From Flavobacterium sp. (lineage in GTDB: Bacteria; Bacteroidota; Bacteroidia; Flavobacteriales; Flavobacteriaceae), in assembly GCA_030153045.1 (NCBI GenBank), contig JASLID010000002.1, forward strand, positions 734 through 64,733: a stretch of 64,000 nt of DNA. The letters run 5' to 3'. This document shows positions 3,302-49,700 of this stretch, one piece after another (the stretch's first letter is position 1; every line of letters begins with the position of its first letter). The notes below the pieces were generated by a model. It worked only from the letters and a program-made list of their open reading frames with translations. It did not search any database and was not told where the DNA came from. Made by a program: the position numbers and the translations under genes.

Positions 3302-4150
3302 TTACTTTAAAGAAAAAACTGTACTTCCAATTAAATTTATGCCTGAAAAGATATTTATTTCATAATCTCCTTTTTGAATATCATTCTTGTTAGGATCTAC
3401 AAATACACAGACATCCATTTCATCATTATCGTAAAATACGTTTGTCATGGCACTATAATGCAAAAGTCGGTCTTTAGATTCTACAAACTCTCCTTTTTTG
3501 TTAACTACTTTATTGCTTGGGTTAAGAATTTGTATAAAAATATCTTTGTTCCCTTTTATAGCCGCTTTGTTTTCAAGCAATGTAAAGCAAACTTTGATTT
3601 GTTCAGTAGCACTAAAGCGTTTGGTTTCGATGATATTATTGGAGACAATTTTAATCCCGTTAGCATACACATTCGTCGCTGTAAGATTTTTAGAAACCGC
3701 AATTACCCTTTCATTATCAGAATTCTTTTTACTTAATTCTTTATTTTTTTCTACTAAAATACTTACTTGAGTAGCTAAAGATTTATTCTCCTCATTTTGG
3801 TTTTTCAACACAGATTTGAGCGAATCGTATTTTTCAGTTACTACTAAATTATTGTCAGTACTTTCTTTCTGAATTATTTTTACAACATTCTTATGGTTTA
3901 TTTTCTCATCCTTTATTGGAGTAATGCTAATATTGTCTAACAATTTTTTGTTTTTAACCACCTCTGCATCATAACGGTTAAAAATTTCTTTTAAATCGTT
4001 AACGTATGTTTTTTTATCTAGTTTTAAGGTTTCTTCTAGTTGTTTGTTCTTAAGCTGACTATCATAGTATTTCATGGCGAAAATCAACGTTGCAGACAAA
4101 AACACAACAGAGGATAATTTAACCATTGTTAATGTAGTTTTAATAGTCAT
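3302..4150 (-). CDS. hypothetical membrane-anchored coiled-coil protein
   Basis: 282-aa ORF with an N-terminal hydrophobic helix (LSSVVFLSATLIFAM), a Lys/Glu/Asn-rich predicted coiled coil and a C-terminal beta-rich region. No recognisable catalytic motif. Confidence 0.55.
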   Translation of the reverse strand: MTIKTTLTMVKLSSVVFLSATLIFAMKYYDSQLKNKQLEETLKLDKKTYVNDLKEIFNRYDAEVVKNKKLLDNISITPIKDEKINHKNVVKIIQKESTDNNLVVTEKYDSLKSVLKNQNEENKSLATQVSILVEKNKELSKKNSDNERVIAVSKNLTATNVYANGIKIVSNNIIETKRFSATEQIKVCFTLLENKAAIKGNKDIFIQILNPSNKVVNKKGEFVESKDRLLHYSAMTNVFYDNDEMDVCVFVDPNKNDIQKGDYEINIFSGINLIGSTVFSLK

Positions 4151-4220
4151 GGATTGGGAAATTTCTAATTTTTACTAAATTTATCTTTTTATAGTTTTAT
4201 AAAAAAATAAAATCGACGAA

Positions 4221-4904
4221 ATGCTTAAAAAACTGATAAATTTATTTTACCCTAAACTCTGTTCTGGTTGTACTAACCTACTTATTCAGAGTGAAAATTT
4301 AATTTGTGTTTCGTGCAGACATGCGTTACCACAAACCAACCATTTATTACATGTTGAAAATGAGGCTTTTAAAAAATTTTATGGAAAAATTCCTGTCGAA
4401 TTTGCTTCGTCAATGTTGTACTATCATAAAAAAGGAATAGTCCAGCAACTCATCCATCACTTGAAATACAAAAACCAACAAGAAATTGGAAAATTAATAG
4501 GTGAATGGTATGTTAACGACCTCAAAGAGAATAAAATAATTCAATCCGTTGATTGTATAATTCCAGTGCCTCTTCATCAAAAAAGACTGAAAGAGCGTGG
4601 ATATAATCAAGTGGAAACTTTTTGCAAAGCTATTGCGAGAGAATTAGAAAAGCCCTTTGAAAATTCGCTATTGGTAAGAAACGAATATGCTAAAACTCAA
4701 TCTAAAAAGAATTTAGTGAATAGGAACTCGGTTTCAGAAAGCACTTTTCAAGCTGAGTCTTCTGAAGTATTCCACAACAAACATTTTTTATTAATCGATG
4801 ATGTTTTAACAACCGGAGCAACACTTGAAGCTTGTGGCAAAGCATTATTAAAAATCCCTGGCGCTAAATTAAGCATTGTTACCATGGCTTTTTCCCAATC
4901 GTAA
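4221..4904 (+). CDS. ComF family protein (phosphoribosyltransferase-like)
   Basis: 227 aa. N-terminal CxxC...CxxC zinc-finger-like motif (CSGC..CVSC) and a C-terminal PRTase motif LLIDDVLTTGATL. Confidence 0.8.
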   Translation: MLKKLINLFYPKLCSGCTNLLIQSENLICVSCRHALPQTNHLLHVENEAFKKFYGKIPVEFASSMLYYHKKGIVQQLIHHLKYKNQQEIGKLIGEWYVNDLKENKIIQSVDCIIPVPLHQKRLKERGYNQVETFCKAIARELEKPFENSLLVRNEYAKTQSKKNLVNRNSVSESTFQAESSEVFHNKHFLLIDDVLTTGATLEACGKALLKIPGAKLSIVTMAFSQS

Positions 4905-25287: not shown

Positions 25288-25809
25288 TTAGTTTCTAGAA
25301 ATTAGGTAAATAAAATTTAATTTTGAATCTTCTCCATAATACTCCACTTGCATTTCATCCACTTTTAAAGCGCCAATTCTTTCAATGGCTTTTTGTGAAC
25401 GAATATTTTGAGCACCAATATGAAAATAAACTTTATCGAGATATTGAAATGCATAATCTAGCATGAGTTTTTTCATTGCTGTATTATATCCTCTACCCCA
25501 AAATTTTCTGGTTATAAAAGTATAACCTATTAAAACTGATTTGTCATTCTCATCGTAATCATAAAACCTAGTACTACCTATAACTTCGTTTGTTATGGCA
25601 TCACAAATTTTAAATGCCCCTTTTGAGATCATCGCGCCTTCAAAAAAATTCCGAAAAACTTCTCTTTTATACCTGTTTTTATTAGGATGTTGTTCCCAAA
25701 TTAACGGATCTGAGGCTGCTTGAAAAAGCGATTCGAAATCATTTTCTTGCAATGGAATTAACTGTACTAATTGGTTTTGTAAATGAGTAGGTTGAATATT
25801 GAATGACAT
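25288..25809 (-). CDS. GNAT family N-acetyltransferase
   Basis: The likely start is the internal Met (MSFNIQPTHL); the ORF track extends to 25860. Acetyl-CoA-binding-type motif RKFWGRGYN. Confidence 0.8.
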   Translation of the reverse strand: MSFNIQPTHLQNQLVQLIPLQENDFESLFQAASDPLIWEQHPNKNRYKREVFRNFFEGAMISKGAFKICDAITNEVIGSTRFYDYDENDKSVLIGYTFITRKFWGRGYNTAMKKLMLDYAFQYLDKVYFHIGAQNIRSQKAIERIGALKVDEMQVEYYGEDSKLNFIYLISRN

Positions 25810-25871
25810 GAAGTAAGTTTTAATTATTCCTGTATTTAAAAATACTATTTCCTTTTCCAAAGTTAAATGAT

Positions 25872-25879
25872 TAATTTTG
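25872..25879 (+). promoter_or_regulatory. candidate -7 box (TAATTTTG) upstream of sodA
   Basis: Exact TAnnTTTG match, 39 nt before the ATG. Confidence 0.4.
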
Positions 25880-25917
25880 AATTATATTTAATTACTAATC
25901 TTTAAAAAATAAATATT

Positions 25918-26523
25918 ATGGCATTTGAATTACCACAATTACCTTATGCATATGATGCATTAGAACCACATATTGATGCAAGAACGATGGAAATTCACCA
26001 TTCAAAGCATCATAACGCTTATACTACAAACTTAAACGCTGCTATTGCTGGAACAGATTTAGAAGGAAAATCAATTGAAGAGATTCTTAAAAATTTAGAT
26101 TTAACTAAAGGAGCTGTACGTAATAACGGTGGAGGTTTTTACAACCATAATTTATTTTGGACTGTAATGTCACCAAACGGTGGAGGATTGCCAACAGGGG
26201 AATTAGCTGATGCCATTACTGCTGCATTTGGAAGTTTTGAAGAGTTTAAAGCTGTTTTTTCTAAGGCTGGAGCAACACAATTTGGTTCAGGATGGGCATG
26301 GTTATGTGTAAAAGACGGTAAACTGGAAGTTTGCGGAACTCCTAATCAAGACAACACTTTAATGCCAGGCGTAGGTTGTGGCGGAACACCAATTTTAGGA
26401 ATGGATGTTTGGGAACATGCCTACTACTTAAATTATCAAAATCGTCGTCCTGATTATATTGAAGCTTTCTTTAATGTTATTAACTGGGCTGAAGTTTCTA
26501 GAAGATACGCTGAAGCGAAATAA
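25918..26523 (+). CDS. sodA: Fe/Mn superoxide dismutase
   Basis: 201 aa. [26 protein letters not shown] and DVWEHAYY are signature motifs. Confidence 0.95.
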
Positions 26524-26544
26524 TCGATATAAAATAAAAAATAT

Positions 26545-26573
26545 AAAGCCAGAAATTACTTTCTGGCTTTTTT
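26545..26573 (+). terminator. intrinsic terminator after sodA
   Basis: 10-bp stem AAAGCCAGAA/TTCTGGCTTT followed by a T-run. Confidence 0.8.
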
Positions 26574-26597
26574 ATTGAATCATAACTAACATTAAAT

Positions 26598-26670
26598 AAA
26601 AAAGGAGGAATATTATATCCTCCTTTTTTGCCCCAAATCTACCATAAACTTAACCTACTTATGTAATGGT
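26598..26670 (-). ncRNA. candidate small RNA, copy 1 (about 73 nt from predicted TSS to terminator U-run)
   Basis: Minus-strand TTTG (comp. 26703-26706), a 20-nt spacer and TACATTTG (comp. 26675-26682). An invariant 47-nt core then starts about 5 nt downstream. Hairpin GGAGGA/TCCTCC (26604-26609 with 26618-26623) is followed by a U-run. No ORF longer than 10 codons. Confidence 0.5.
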
Positions 26671-26674
26671 GAGT

Positions 26675-26706
26675 CAAATGTATATTAGGAATGATTGATT
26701 TCCAAA
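26675..26706 (-). promoter_or_regulatory. Bacteroidota-type promoter (-33 TTTG / -7 TAnnTTTG) for sRNA copy 1
   Basis: Exact TAnnTTTG match (TACATTTG) with a 20-nt spacing to TTTG. The flanking sequence caccgattttctttgg is conserved in both copies. Confidence 0.5.
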
Positions 26707-26838
26707 GAAAATCGGTGAATTGTATAAAAAGTCGTTGAGTTGAAATTTGGCCTATTTTCGTCTAACTAGATTTAGTTAGAAAATTATTTTCACAGGCTTC
26801 AATTTTATTTTTTTAAGATTTTGGAACTTATATAAAAT

Positions 26839-26911
26839 AAAAAAGGTAGAAGTTTAGTTCTACCTTTTTTGCCCCAAATCTACCATAAACTTAACCTACT
26901 TATGTAATGGT
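26839..26911 (-). ncRNA. candidate small RNA, copy 2 (about 73 nt)
   Basis: Same architecture 241 bp away. TTTG (comp. 26944-26947), a 20-nt spacer, TACTTTCG (comp. 26916-26923), an identical 47-nt core (26865-26911), and hairpin GGTAGAA/TTCTACC (26845-26851 with 26858-26864) plus a U-run. Confidence 0.5.
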
Positions 26912-26915
26912 ATGG

Positions 26916-26947
26916 CGAAAGTATATTGATATTGTTTTGCTACCAAA
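26916..26947 (-). promoter_or_regulatory. Bacteroidota-type promoter for sRNA copy 2
   Basis: TTTG, 20 nt, then TACTTTCG (one mismatch to TAnnTTTG). The spacing and -33 context are the same as in copy 1. Confidence 0.45.
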
Positions 26948-26996
26948 GAAAATCGGTGAAGTGTATAAAAACCCGATGAAGTGCAAATATTAACAT

Positions 26997-28895
26997 TTAG
27001 TACGCTCTTGCATCTTTTCCTTCGTAAAAATTCATGAATGCTTTATTCACCACTCTATTTCCACCATCTGTAGGATAATCCCCCGTAAAATACCAGTCCC
27101 CAAGGTTTTTCGGACAAGCAACGTGTAAATTTTCTACTGTTTGGAAAATAATTTTCACTTCCGATTTTACTGAAGCTTCTGTTAGCAATTCCGAAATTTT
27201 ATCTGACACTTCCTGATCTGTAAATGGTGCGTAAATTTCGTTTACATAATTCACAACTTCGCTGTCATTTAAATTTTCTTGCGCTTTGCATTTGGCGTAC
27301 ACTTCATCCACAATATGGTATAGATTTCTGTCTTTCAACAATGCTAAAGCGGCACGGAAAGCTACCAATCCTTCCAATTTAGCCATATCGATTCCATAAC
27401 AATCCGGATAACGAATTTGTGGTGCCGATGAAACTATGATTATTTTTTTAGGATTGAGTCGGTCCATCATTTTAATGATACTCTTCTGTAATGTCGTTCC
27501 ACGCACAATACTATCATCGATGATGACCAAATTGTCTGTTGGTTTTATAACGCCGTAAGTCACATCGTAAACATGCGCCACCATATCGTCACGAGAACTA
27601 TCTTCAGTAATGAAGGTTCTCAATTTGACATCTTTAATGGCTATTTTCTCAGAACGCAATTTAACAGATAAGATTTCTTGCAGTTTTTCAGCGGATAACG
27701 ATTCTTTACTTTCAAGAATAGCAGCTATTTTCCTTTGATTTAAAAAATCATTGGCTGCTTCAACCATTCCGTAAAAAGAAGTCTCTGCTGTATTTGGAAT
27801 ATAAGAAAAAACAGTATTGTCAGTGTCATTATTTACTGCCTCTAAAACGGCAGGCATAATTAGTTTTCCTAAATTTTTTCGTTCTTGGTATATTTCGGCA
27901 TCACTTCCGCGTGAAAAATAAATACGTTCGAAAGAACATGCTTTATTCGGCAATGCTTCTCTGATCTTTTCATCGATAACAGTTCCGTTCTTTTTAATAA
28001 TTAAAGCGTGACCTGGTGTAATTTCTTGAACCTTATCGAATGGTACATTAAAAACCGTTTGAATTACCGGTCTTTCAGAAGCTACGACCACAATTTCATC
28101 ATCTTGATAAAAATAAGCTGGTCGAATTCCTGCTGGATCACGGGTTACAAAGGCATCGCCATGACCTAAAAGCCCAGCCATTGCATAACCTCCATCCCAG
28201 TTTTTAGACGCGCGTTTTAAAATTCGGGCTACATCTAATCTTTCGGCAATAACTGGTGAAGCTTCTTGTTTAGAAAGCCCTTCATTTTTACATTCTTGGT
28301 ACAAATCAGTCACTTCATCATCTAGAAAATGACCTATTTTTTCCATCACAGTAACCGTATCGGCCATTTGTTTAGGATGCTGACCAAGAGTAACTAAATC
28401 TTGGAAAAGCTCTTTAACATTTGTCATGTTAAAATTTCCTGCTACAATTAAATTACGATGCATCCAATTGTTTTGACGTAAAAACGGGTGTACGTTTTCG
28501 ATGCTGTTTTTGCCAAAAGTCCCGTAACGAACATGTCCTAAAAACAATTCCCCCACATAAGGGATATTTGCTTTTTGAAGCGTCACATTATCTTTATATT
28601 CAGGATTATTGGTCAACTCATCGCTGATGCGTTGGTTCACTTGATTGAACACATCTTGAATAGGTTGTGCTTGATTGGAACGGATTCGGCTAATGTATCG
28701 CTGACCTGGCTCCACATCCAATTTTATACTTGCCAATCCAGCTCCATCTTGACCTCTATTGTGTTGTTTCTCAAGAAGCAAATACATTTTTTCAACTCCG
28801 TAAAAAGCTGTGCCATACTTTTCTTTGTAAAATTCTAATGGCTTTTTTAATCTTAAAAGGGCAATGCCACACTCGTGTTTAATTGCGTCACTCAT
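26997..28895 (-). CDS. purF: amidophosphoribosyltransferase (long Bacteroidota form)
   Basis: Ntn glutamine amidotransferase N-terminus MSDAIKHECGIALL and PRTase motif VIIDDSIVRGTT. The ORF track start at 28946 is an upstream extension. Confidence 0.85.
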   Translation of the reverse strand: MSDAIKHECGIALLRLKKPLEFYKEKYGTAFYGVEKMYLLLEKQHNRGQDGAGLASIKLDVEPGQRYISRIRSNQAQPIQDVFNQVNQRISDELTNNPEYKDNVTLQKANIPYVGELFLGHVRYGTFGKNSIENVHPFLRQNNWMHRNLIVAGNFNMTNVKELFQDLVTLGQHPKQMADTVTVMEKIGHFLDDEVTDLYQECKNEGLSKQEASPVIAERLDVARILKRASKNWDGGYAMAGLLGHGDAFVTRDPAGIRPAYFYQDDEIVVVASERPVIQTVFNVPFDKVQEITPGHALIIKKNGTVIDEKIREALPNKACSFERIYFSRGSDAEIYQERKNLGKLIMPAVLEAVNNDTDNTVFSYIPNTAETSFYGMVEAANDFLNQRKIAAILESKESLSAEKLQEILSVKLRSEKIAIKDVKLRTFITEDSSRDDMVAHVYDVTYGVIKPTDNLVIIDDSIVRGTTLQKSIIKMMDRLNPKKIIIVSSAPQIRYPDCYGIDMAKLEGLVAFRAALALLKDRNLYHIVDEVYAKCKAQENLNDSEVVNYVNEIYAPFTDQEVSDKISELLTEASVKSEVKIIFQTVENLHVACPKNLGDWYFTGDYPTDGGNRVVNKAFMNFYEGKDARAY

Positions 28896-28950
28896 TGTTG
28901 TTGTGTTGTAGGGTTTAAATAAAAATGCCCCGACATATCGAGGCATAAAT

Positions 28951-29877
28951 TTATGATAATTCTATATCAAATTGTGTTAAAGCTTTAAATTGCTTTAAAC
29001 GATTTTGCACTTCTTCTTTTGTTAAGGCTACCATTCTTTCTGTTCCGAATTTTTCAACACAGAAAGAAGCCAAGTTAGAACCTTGAACAATAGCTGTTTT
29101 CATGTTTTCGAAAGAAATATTTTCGCTTTGCGTAATAAATCCTGAGAAACCTCCAGCAAATGTATCTCCAGCTCCTGTTGGATCAAATACTTCTTCTAAT
29201 GGCAATGCCGGCGCGAAGAAAACTTGTTTGTCATGGAATAATAATGCTCCATGTTCTCCTTTTTTAATTACTACGTATTTAGGCCCCATAGTCTGGATTT
29301 TCGCAGCAGCTTTTACTAACGAATATTCTCCTGATAACTGACGTGCTTCTTCATCATTGATGGTAATCACATCGACACGTTTCATTACTTCTTTTAATTC
29401 TGGTAAAGCACAATCCATCCAAAAATTCATAGTATCTAAAACTACTAATTTTGGAGTTTCAGTCAATTGATCTAAAACACTACTTTGTACTAATGGGTGT
29501 AAGTTTCCTAACATAACCACATCCGTGTTTTTGAAATTTTCTGGCACAACTGGTTTAAAATCAGCCAAAACATTTAATTCTGTAATTAAAGTATCGCGAG
29601 AATTTAAATCATTATGGTATTTTCCGCTCCAAAAGAAAGTTTTTCCTCCTTTTACTACTTCAAGACCTGTAACGTCTATATTTCTTGATTTTAATAAATC
29701 GATGTGTTCTTGAGGAAAATCATCTCCTACTACCGAAACAATAGCCGATTGTAAGTTAAAATGAGATGCCGAAAGCCCTATAAAAGTAGCTGCTCCACCT
29801 AAAATCTTATCTGTTTTACCAAATGGGGTCTCAATTGCATCAAAAGCAACTGTTCCTACAATTAATAATTTGTTCAT
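28951..29877 (-). CDS. PfkB family carbohydrate/nucleoside kinase
   Basis: 308 aa. GGAATF near the N-terminus and the C-terminal PfkB signature DPTGAGDTFAGGF. Confidence 0.85.
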   Translation of the reverse strand: MNKLLIVGTVAFDAIETPFGKTDKILGGAATFIGLSASHFNLQSAIVSVVGDDFPQEHIDLLKSRNIDVTGLEVVKGGKTFFWSGKYHNDLNSRDTLITELNVLADFKPVVPENFKNTDVVMLGNLHPLVQSSVLDQLTETPKLVVLDTMNFWMDCALPELKEVMKRVDVITINDEEARQLSGEYSLVKAAAKIQTMGPKYVVIKKGEHGALLFHDKQVFFAPALPLEEVFDPTGAGDTFAGGFSGFITQSENISFENMKTAIVQGSNLASFCVEKFGTERMVALTKEEVQNRLKQFKALTQFDIELS

Positions 29878-38554: not shown

Positions 38555-38643
38555 GACACAAATTTAATTTTTTTTCACTGAGAAGTAACAGACATTCGTA
38601 AAGTTTGATTTTAAAAATACTATATCTTTGATAAACGAAACCC

Positions 38644-38725
38644 ATAGCCCGGATAGCAGTGGAAATCCTTTTTCTTTTTGTTGACAAAAGGAAAAAGATT
38701 GTAACGAATAGCCGGAAATAGCTCC
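38644..38725. repeat. hairpin-containing intergenic repeat, copy A
   Basis: ATAGCCCGGATAGCAGTGGAA-ATCCTTTTTCTTTT..loop..AAAAGGAAAAAGAT-TGTAACGAATAGCCGGAAATAGCTCC. Aligns with copy B over its whole length. Confidence 0.75.
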
Positions 38726-49575: not shown

Positions 49576-49622
49576 CAGATGTTGCTGGTTACCGAAATAG
49601 TTGTTGTTTATTTTTATATTTC

Positions 49623-49700
49623 TAGCCCTGATGGAAGCGACATCCTTTTTGTTTTTTCTTTAAAAACAAAAAGATATAGCGTACAGCAGGAAATAGCTTC
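49623..49700. repeat. hairpin-containing intergenic repeat, copy B
   Basis: TAGCCCTGATGGAAGCGAC-ATCCTTTTTGTTTTT..loop..AAAAACAAAAAGAT-ATAGCGTACAGCAGGAAATAGCTTC. It fills most of the hmgA-hppD spacer. Confidence 0.75.

Follow-up and report, generated by a model that had tools for sequence, protein, structure and literature searches.

Two tandem small RNA genes occupy the gap between sodA and purF in the window (the whole 64,000 nt stretch of Flavobacterium sp. DNA that was analysed), and to judge from their sequence both are members of the published Rfp13/Rfp15 family of sRNAs. They share core homology with that family, lie in the corresponding position relative to sodA and purF, and each carries its own predicted sigma-A promoter and terminator. 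The sRNA pair is real but not new, because its core matches the published Rfp13, a 73 nt RNA of F. psychrophilum that has been detected experimentally; the proposal of a duplicated sRNA gene of about 70–75 nt, made in a sequence-only reading of this region, is borne out to that extent. Relative to the earlier literature, as far as its available text extends, the new elements are the family-wide arrays of these genes, a deep purF-sodA synteny and a precisely spaced two-site operator upstream of the promoters.

Two sRNA genes in the sodA-purF gap

The sodA and purF genes are convergent, and the distance from the sodA stop (26523) to the purF stop (26997) leaves a gap of 473 bp. The main features of the locus are as follows.

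25918-26523, plus strand: sodA, Fe/Mn superoxide dismutase (Pfam Sod_Fe_N and Sod_Fe_C), the conserved left neighbour of the array
26598-26670, minus strand: sRNA copy B, sodA-proximal, predicted 73 nt transcript from A26670 (core identity, nhmmer, Rfp13 match)
26598-26629, minus strand: predicted intrinsic terminator of copy B, A-run/hairpin/U-run (terminator scan, fold)
26675-26706, minus strand: predicted core promoter of copy B, -33 TTTG at 26706-26703, 20 nt spacer, -7 box TACATTTG at 26682-26675 (sequence, family position matrix)
26712-26743, minus strand: operator-like repeats of copy B, TCAACTCAACGA at 26743-26732 and ACAATTCACCGA at 26723-26712, 20 bp apart (family matrix)
26839-26911, minus strand: sRNA copy A, purF-proximal, predicted 73 nt transcript from A26911 (core identity, nhmmer, TSS by comparison with F. 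psychrophilum)
26839-26870, minus strand: predicted intrinsic terminator of copy A, A-run, 7 bp G/C-containing stem, U-run (terminator scan, fold)
26916-26947, minus strand: predicted core promoter of copy A, -33 TTTG at 26947-26944, 20 nt spacer, -7 box TACTTTCG at 26923-26916 (sequence, family position matrix)
26953-26984, minus strand: operator-like repeats of copy A, GCACTTCATCGG at 26984-26973 and ACACTTCACCGA at 26964-26953, 20 bp apart, at -69 and -49 (family matrix)
26997-28895, minus strand: purF, amidophosphoribosyltransferase, the conserved right neighbour, with the same reading direction as the sRNAs

The true start of purF is likely the ATG at 28895, and the SodA protein of the window is 92–97% identical to Flavobacterium proteins. 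Copy A starts 86 nt past the purF stop, and copy B ends 75 nt from the sodA stop.

Two direct copies with a 241 bp period had been described between the convergent genes from the sequence alone, and a repeat finder agrees, placing them at 26584-26745 and 26825-26986 (162 nt, 80% identity, period 241). At 162 nt, the repeat unit exceeds the extent given in that reading. Its complete identity of a 47 nt core was reproduced (47/47; 26624-26670 = 26865-26911), and in the pairwise alignment of the two copies this block is bordered by diverged spacer and loop sequence. A 41 nt core query has exactly two mismatch-free matches in the window, and none of 100 shuffles gave even one match. A core HMM (nhmmer) also finds exactly two copies (E = 2.3e-13 each), and neither search located a further copy elsewhere in the 64 kb.

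Both copies have the minus-strand promoter recognised earlier, consisting of a -33 TTTG, a 20 nt spacer and a -7 box of the TAnnTTTG type, and in each the identical segment begins 5 nt past the -7 box. Each unit ends, again as described, in a hairpin and U-run (26629-26598 in copy B, 26870-26839 in copy A). The compensating changes in the terminator stems are also present: two base pairs differ between the copies, with both arms altered (GGAGGA/UCCUCC versus GGUAGAA/UUCUACC). Terminator-like sites in the region number four, against 0.5 expected. A separate terminator for sodA was found at 26545-26570, and the same terminator scan detected none between the purF stop and copy A, so that purF transcripts probably also end at the copy A terminator. 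In F. psychrophilum, the spacer between purF and Rfp15 is transcribed (PMC9723704).

Rfp13 and Rfp15 were described in the F. psychrophilum transcriptome of Guérin et al. (2021, ISME Commun 1:33; PMC9723704), which added 85 new RNAs (Rfp1-89). Rfp13 (THC0290_N_0129) is a 73 nt RNA encoded on the minus strand directly after, and convergent to, sodA; its sequence begins CCATTACATAAGTAGGTTAAGTTATGGTAGATTTGGGGCAAAAAAGGCGG and its annotation reads "induced under iron depletion" (PMC9723704). Rfp15 (THC0290_N_0156) is 66 nt long, follows purF on the same strand at a distance of 88 nt, and has the first 26 nt in common with Rfp13, after which the two diverge (PMC9723704). The primary TSS of Rfp13, mapped by dRNA-seq with 7237 reads and assigned to the sigma-A promoter class, is the A immediately 5′ of CCAT (PMC9723704). 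Its equivalents in the window are 26670 and 26911, the first base of the 47 nt identical segment in each copy, in accord with the start site that had been placed about 5 nt past the -7 box.

Both window copies equal Rfp13 over its first 48 nt save for one deleted T (47/48). The resemblance to Rfp13 extends to the 73 nt length, the type of terminator and the layout of the promoter, in which a TTCAnC repeat again stands at -49. The genes alongside are also those found in F. psychrophilum, sodA for Rfp13 and purF for Rfp15. In F. psychrophilum, sodA and purF are 43 kb apart, whereas in the window they are adjacent, which brings both positions into one gap as a tandem pair. Copy B occupies the Rfp13 position; copy A occupies the Rfp15 position, yet has an Rfp13-type core, as does copy B, while the 3′ half of Rfp15 itself has diverged.

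The pair had been taken for an apparently unannotated sRNA gene. This holds for Rfam and for the genome annotation, from both of which the family is absent, but not for the literature, where it had already appeared as Rfp13/Rfp15. Both RNAs are named there among the sRNAs conserved in other species, with homologs of Rfp13 in F. johnsoniae, F. columnare, F. branchiophilum, F. indicum, F. gilvum, F. crassostreae, Cellulophaga and Zobellia (PMC9723704). The available text of Guérin et al. (2021; PMC9723704) does not mention that the genes form arrays, that they are syntenic with purF and sodA, or that repeats are paired upstream of them. A search for later literature on Rfp13, by name and by sequence, found none.

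A possible match to the Flavo-1 motif (RF01705), raised in the sequence-only reading, is rejected. A cmscan of 25500-28000 against Rfam 15 returned no family at E values up to 10, the best scores being chance matches to terminators, whereas the Flavo-1 model detects two genuine copies elsewhere in the window (38642-38722 and 49620-49697; 79–80 bits, gathering threshold). Flavo-1 is also an intergenic RNA motif of Flavobacteriaceae and differs from the present element in sequence and structure. In F. psychrophilum, a Flavo-1 copy precedes sodA (PMC9723704).

Arrays, synteny and upstream repeats

A degenerate core pattern, searched against one genome per species, matched at least 120 loci, and all named records among them are Flavobacteriaceae, representing at least 35 genera. 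One MAG titled Pseudanabaena, probably mis-binned, is among the matches listed. Had related genomes lacked the core and hairpin, the repeat could have been a strain-specific duplication of terminator DNA; instead, core, promoter and hairpin are kept in at least 120 species of Flavobacteriaceae. With nhmmer, the core HMM finds 258 copies among the listed loci (at least 120) and the window. Arrays of 2–6 copies are present in 79 of the 121 sources (listed loci and window), and the copy counts per source, which are lower bounds since the loci are fixed 8 kb blocks, are distributed as follows.

1 copy: 42 sources
2 copies: 45 sources
3 copies: 15 sources
4 copies: 16 sources
5 copies: 2 sources
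6 copies: 1 source

Neighbouring copies across the listed loci are mostly spaced by 185–250 nt, so the 241 bp period of the window is typical. A tblastn search of the 120 listed blocks with the window proteins found sodA in 96, purF in 103 and both in 84. Because the two genes are found together in 84 of 120 blocks, the order purF, array, convergent sodA is taken as the ancestral arrangement by this comparison of loci, and the separated Rfp13 and Rfp15 loci of F. psychrophilum as the derived state.

The promoter of copy B is 83% identical to that of the sodA-proximal copy in the closest relative (L119), versus 74% to copy A. Since copy B is nearer to its positional ortholog than to its neighbour, the sequences argue that copies A and B are old positional paralogs and that the identity of their cores reflects purifying selection. 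Recent duplication or gene conversion was rejected on the same figures as the cause of the 47/47 identity, and the duplication is accordingly read as ancestral and positional, not as a recent strain-specific event.

Upstream of the core promoters, the two window copies have in common a block, TTTATACANTTCACCGATTTTCTTTGG, which contains paired, operator-like direct repeats and had been missed in the sequence-only reading. In a set of 95 nt upstream of 236 units, TTYRNC forms two sharp peaks separated by 20 bp, which fall at -69 and -49 when counted from the mapped TSS. Both TTYRNC repeats are present in 125 units, with a spacing of exactly 20 bp in 115 of them. About three quarters of family promoters carry two direct repeats (tGCAtTTCAtCgA) 20 bp apart, the repeat consensus being tGCAtTTCAtCgA followed by an A/T-rich run. 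The distal repeat of copy B, TCAACTCAACGA, has a C for the first T of the hexamer, and the same CTCAAC variant is found in L119. The family -7 box (TAnnTTtg) stands at a fixed distance from the repeats, and the -33 element is weak. At -49, the F. psychrophilum promoters have TTCATC (Rfp13) and TTCAAC (Rfp15) (PMC9723704).

A matrix trained without the window scores the copy A promoter at 44.2 bits and that of copy B at 31.7 bits. In about 1 Mb, it has 198 matches above 12 bits, of which 181 lie ahead of a canonical sRNA core, and the others mostly ahead of slightly diverged sRNA copies. Its best non-sRNA match in the same sequence lies in the window itself (4246-4175, minus strand, 27.6 bits), where it precedes the gene (3302-4150) of a 282-aa protein with the Pfam domain DUF8428 and no known function. 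Upstream of this gene, F. psychrophilum, F. swingsii, F. terrae and F. humi retain the proximal repeat GCATTTCGTCGATTTTATTT and a correctly spaced TAAATTTA box; the distal half-site overlaps the first codons of a divergent comF-like gene, which confounds its conservation. The DUF8428 gene is, by these sequence matches, a possible member of the regulon.

A classical Fur box was considered for these promoters and rejected. The best matches to the 19 bp consensus are 12/19 in copy A and 10/19 in copy B, the consensus being the classical one, from which the motif of Flavobacteriia may differ, and the family shows no enrichment over background (mean best match 10.5/19 versus 10.6/19). Direct repeats that are two helical turns apart and end just upstream of the -33 element have the usual geometry of activator sites. 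The position and geometry of the repeats at -69 and -49 thus suggest control by an activator dedicated to these promoters, and not through a classical Fur box. Direct repeats spaced by 20–21 bp would presumably suit proteins of the AraC/XylS or LytTR type, which is a guess on our part.

RNA structure, expression and target searches

The family RNA has a modal length of 70 nt (range 66–75). Each RNA was folded separately, because the MAFFT alignment (A2) loses register around the terminator; in these folds, where pairs are canonical by construction, 183 of 188 unique RNAs form a terminator hairpin of 11–18 bp (median -15.9 kcal/mol, 76 different 5′ arms), and four to six types of pair occur at each of stem positions 3–8. 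The conserved 5′ 46 nt behave differently from the terminator. Their fold is weak (-2.7 kcal/mol, z = +0.99) and no better than that of shuffles, so the ACCAU/AUGGU stem that had been drawn in the core, and is also predicted by RNAfold, was rejected as a conserved 5′ stem-loop. Covariation was sought and not found in this hairpin: paired cells amount to 88.0% versus 87.4% in shuffles, with one double-sided change, while several pairs have 14–28 uncompensated breaks and changes in the 5′ arm are uncompensated. Base-pairing sRNAs that act in trans are usually built in this way, with a conserved single-stranded 5′ region ahead of a terminator.

A 1 nt insertion separates two subfamilies, one marine (AUGGUAAGAUUU) and one freshwater (AUGGUAGAUUU). 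It breaks the 8-codon frame that begins at the internal AUG, making a peptide unlikely, and a small ORF was rejected on this ground, in agreement with the earlier view that the units hold no credible ORF. Part of the invariance seen in GTAGGTTAA...TGGTA...GATTTGGGG was imposed by the search pattern. Rfp15, which was found independently by Guérin et al. (PMC9723704), keeps GUAGGUUAAGUUUAU, and matches obtained with the HMM alone keep GUAGGU.

Published expression data for the F. psychrophilum ortholog (limma; PMC9723704) show induction of Rfp13 under iron depletion with dipyridyl (log2FC +2.38, adjusted P 0.008, 5-fold), in the transition phase (log2FC +5.68), in the stationary phase (log2FC +7.09, about 130-fold) and with NaCl (log2FC +2.2), and a decrease in plasma (log2FC -1.27). 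The responses of Rfp15 are weaker (+3.37 in the stationary phase, +0.63 with dipyridyl; PMC9723704). With array signals near log2 17, Rfp13 is among the most abundant regulated transcripts of F. psychrophilum (PMC9723704). Its expression cluster, A1769, also includes tRNAs (PMC9723704), so part of the stationary-phase induction may be the behaviour of a stable small RNA.

Searches for targets were made mainly within the window. The complements of the candidate seeds, GAUUUGGGG and GUAGGUUAAGUU, are about as frequent in its 64 kb as chance predicts, and RNAduplex over its 51 start regions gave AU-driven energies that are uninformative. The purF leader was tried and rejected as a target: an apparent, better-than-shuffle pairing disappeared on alignment (antisense 17.44 versus sense 17.46), the signal having come from the GC-rich terminator of the upstream gene. 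The sodA leader shows no conserved complementarity to the sRNA. The published CopraRNA list for Rfp13 is headed by remG, gcdH, dnaA, glnS, ribD and ribE, which are unvalidated predictions (PMC9723704) and not obviously related to iron.

Possible mode of action and comparison with known sRNAs

To our knowledge, Bacteroidota have neither Hfq nor ProQ, and very few of their sRNAs have a known function. The best explanation of the present family, and one in which we place moderate confidence, is that of activator-driven, trans-acting sibling sRNAs that pair with mRNAs through an unstructured 5′ region, a mechanism that we infer from the anatomy of the sRNAs and the expression of the ortholog. Base pairing in trans is likeliest because the conserved 5′ 46 nt are unstructured. 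Under this model, the two genes of the window would be transcribed independently, each from its sigma-A promoter into an RNA of about 73 nt that ends at the A-run/hairpin/U-run terminator. A dedicated activator would bind the tGCAtTTCAtCgA repeats and turn on all copies of an array together, under conditions like those reported for Rfp13 (iron depletion with dipyridyl, entry into the stationary phase, high salt). The RNAs would then pair, without Hfq, with several mRNAs through the exposed 5′ region, for which AGUAGGUUAAG and GAUUUGGGGC are candidate seeds. Multiple copies would raise the dosage and, in some genera, differing promoters may bring in differing inputs. Copy A would double as the 3′ end of purF transcripts.

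The RNAs might instead bind and titrate a protein or another conserved partner, in the manner of CsrB/RsmZ or 6S RNA, which we regard as rather improbable. Many gene copies and very high abundance would provide the stoichiometry needed, and the family offers both, with up to 6 genes per array among the listed loci and an F. psychrophilum RNA at a log2 signal of about 17. The target searches (window seeds, sodA and purF leaders) gave none, and about 30 contiguous nt are near-invariant across genera whose PurF proteins are only 56–75% identical. Such a length of near-invariant sequence family-wide exceeds the need of a single seed, which speaks against the pairing model and would fit a protein or other conserved partner. 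However, part of the invariance is due to the search pattern, and multi-target sibling sRNAs such as Qrr also retain about 30 invariant nt. The RNA contains no repeated protein-binding motifs, whereas CsrB-type RNAs carry many GGA sites, and its shortness and single unstructured region are what pairing sRNAs typically show.

It is very doubtful that the units are cis-acting terminators or insulators that avert collision between purF and sodA transcription, the RNAs being functionless by-products. The units keep their place between convergent genes, the stretch from purF to copy A contains no terminator, the purF-Rfp15 spacer of F. psychrophilum is transcribed, and the hairpins, flanked on both sides by A-runs and U-runs, could terminate bidirectionally. 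Yet sodA has its separate terminator at 26545-26570, and up to six units go far beyond what termination needs. The 5′ core and the promoter/operator are the most conserved parts while the hairpin sequence varies freely, and the F. psychrophilum units have their own mapped primary TSS and a regulated, very high expression. We give scarcely any credence to a tiny protein from the internal AUG (AUG GUA GAU UUG GGG CAA AAA AGG UAG, 8 codons), or to a mobile or repetitive DNA element. The AUG, at position 25 of the core, never varies and the units are repeated, but the 1 nt insertion (AUGGUAAGAUUU versus AUGGUAGAUUU) shifts the frame between large subfamilies. Copies lie at one syntenic locus in nearly all listed genomes, only 2 are present in 64 kb, and repeat analysis found no terminal inverted repeats or target duplications, all of which argue against a mobile element.

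The preferred reading of activator-driven, mRNA-pairing siblings can be extended to the whole family, although only as a tentative proposal: the purF-sodA gap may be the conserved Flavobacteriaceae home of a sibling-sRNA array, under a dedicated activator that acts on 20 bp-spaced repeats also preceding the DUF8428 gene. If this is true, there would be a new regulon responsive to stress or iron and, for the first time in an Hfq-less phylum, a post-transcriptional master regulator that operates family-wide; in function it would parallel PrrF/RyhB or Qrr, with different components. Little is understood of how Bacteroidota control their genes after transcription, and Rfp13-type RNA is conserved at one locus, often in several copies, in Flavobacteriaceae that live in soil, freshwater or the sea or cause disease in fish. 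Should the connection with iron be borne out, the family would reveal how a major group of environmental bacteria and fish pathogens copes with iron scarcity. The family identity, the arrays and the precise two-site operator make the system experimentally tractable, as the operator could serve as bait for the regulator and the whole array could be deleted in one piece. The Rfp13/Rfp15 family would also clearly merit an Rfam entry and a place in genome annotation.

Among known systems, PrrF1 and PrrF2 of Pseudomonas aeruginosa are tandem siblings with their own promoters and terminators that are induced at iron scarcity, and they belong with RyhB to a class of iron-sparing sRNAs. The window genes resemble these as short RNAs with a 3′ terminator hairpin and, in the case of PrrF1/PrrF2, as tandem sibling genes, but they have no sequence similarity to them. 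PrrF and RyhB are Hfq-dependent and are repressed by Fur through a Fur box in the promoter, whereas here the classical Fur box is not enriched and conserved direct repeats are found upstream of the -33 element. A further difference is that Rfp13 is induced much more by the stationary phase than by dipyridyl. Its published target predictions are not iron-centred, and complementary sites showed no enrichment in the window. Qrr1-5 of Vibrio (activated by LuxO) and LhrC1-5 of Listeria (LisR) are multi-copy siblings with an activator site upstream of the promoter, and LhrC1-4 are arranged head to tail. The present family is like these in its near-identical genes with a long invariant core, for which redundancy and dosage are the presumed logic, and differs from them in sigma factor, regulator families, sequences and phylum.

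sRNA-like promoters at other genes

The promoter matrix, a position matrix trained on sRNA promoters of other genomes, was used to scan about 1 Mb of sequence, and its top match outside the sRNA itself (27.6 bits) lies upstream of a gene for a DUF8428 protein.

3302-4150, minus strand: DUF8428 ORF, product of unknown function, preceded by an sRNA-like promoter
4175-4246, minus strand: sRNA-like promoter of the DUF8428 gene (promoter matrix, 27.6 bits)
4221-4904, plus strand: comF-like gene, divergent from the DUF8428 gene

As in the sRNA promoters, two TTYRNC repeats are spaced 20 bp apart, and the distance to the -7 box is also the same. Four other Flavobacterium species keep the proximal repeat upstream of the gene; the distal one shares sequence with the start of the comF-like gene, which is read divergently. 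The comF-like mRNA carries a 12-nt perfect complement to nt 8-19 of the sRNA (UAACCUACUUAU; 4270-4285, plus strand), situated about 50 nt inside the coding region. A match of this kind is expected by chance in an estimated one case in five or so, and it is therefore only a weak lead.

Weak but recurrent matches to the promoter matrix (13-20 bits) were also seen in several marine genera at the promoters of acpP (acyl carrier protein), upstream of the gene at loci L028, L037, L073, L086 and L094.

Variant copies in marine arrays

The final, sodA-proximal copy of marine sRNA arrays is a variant paralog (...GAUUUGGGACGAAAAGGG), seen in Pricia (L001), Maribacter (L009), Zobellia (L019) and others. 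Its promoter is without the two repeats, and a conserved CAATACCAGTA..TTTAGTA motif stands in their place. Since the promoter motif of the variant differs, separate copies within one array may respond to different signals.

The purF start and leader

28893-28951, minus strand: region of the purF start and the upstream terminator (ORF listed as 26997-28946)

The true start of purF is probably the ATG at 28895 (MSDAIKHECGI). The listed ORF (26997-28946) is 17 codons longer, and these extra codons run into the terminator hairpin (GCCTCGATATGTCGGGGC) belonging to the pfkB-family kinase gene that lies upstream. This layout recurs in many related loci. In a single genome, Aquimarina spongiae (L110), a diverged and inverted sRNA-like sequence, reading CCAUAAUUACUUAGGACUAAAUCCUUAUAAUUUGGGGC on the opposite strand, is found about 35-75 nt upstream of purF, and is either a paralog of the sRNA that has degenerated or, within the purF leader, a long antisense site.

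One sRNA-carrying locus (L113) comes from a record titled as a Pseudanabaena (cyanobacterial) MAG. Its purF is of the Flavobacteriaceae type (77% identical), which, together with the presence of the sRNA, indicates that the contig is probably mis-binned.

Comparison with known RNAs

In supplementary file 4 of the F. psychrophilum study (PMC9723704), expression cluster A1769 places tRNA-Cys and tRNA-Asn alongside the sRNAs Rfp13 and Rfp15, so that caution is needed where small stable RNAs seem to be induced in stationary phase on the arrays of this study. An Rfam scan of the whole window at the gathering score matched two Flavo-1 motifs only.

38642-38722, plus strand: Flavo-1 RNA motif (RF01705), Rfam match, 79.4 bits
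49620-49697, plus strand: Flavo-1 RNA motif (RF01705), Rfam match, 80.5 bits

Against the RF01705 gathering score of 42, the threshold for Flavo-1 calls, both are genuine members of this family.
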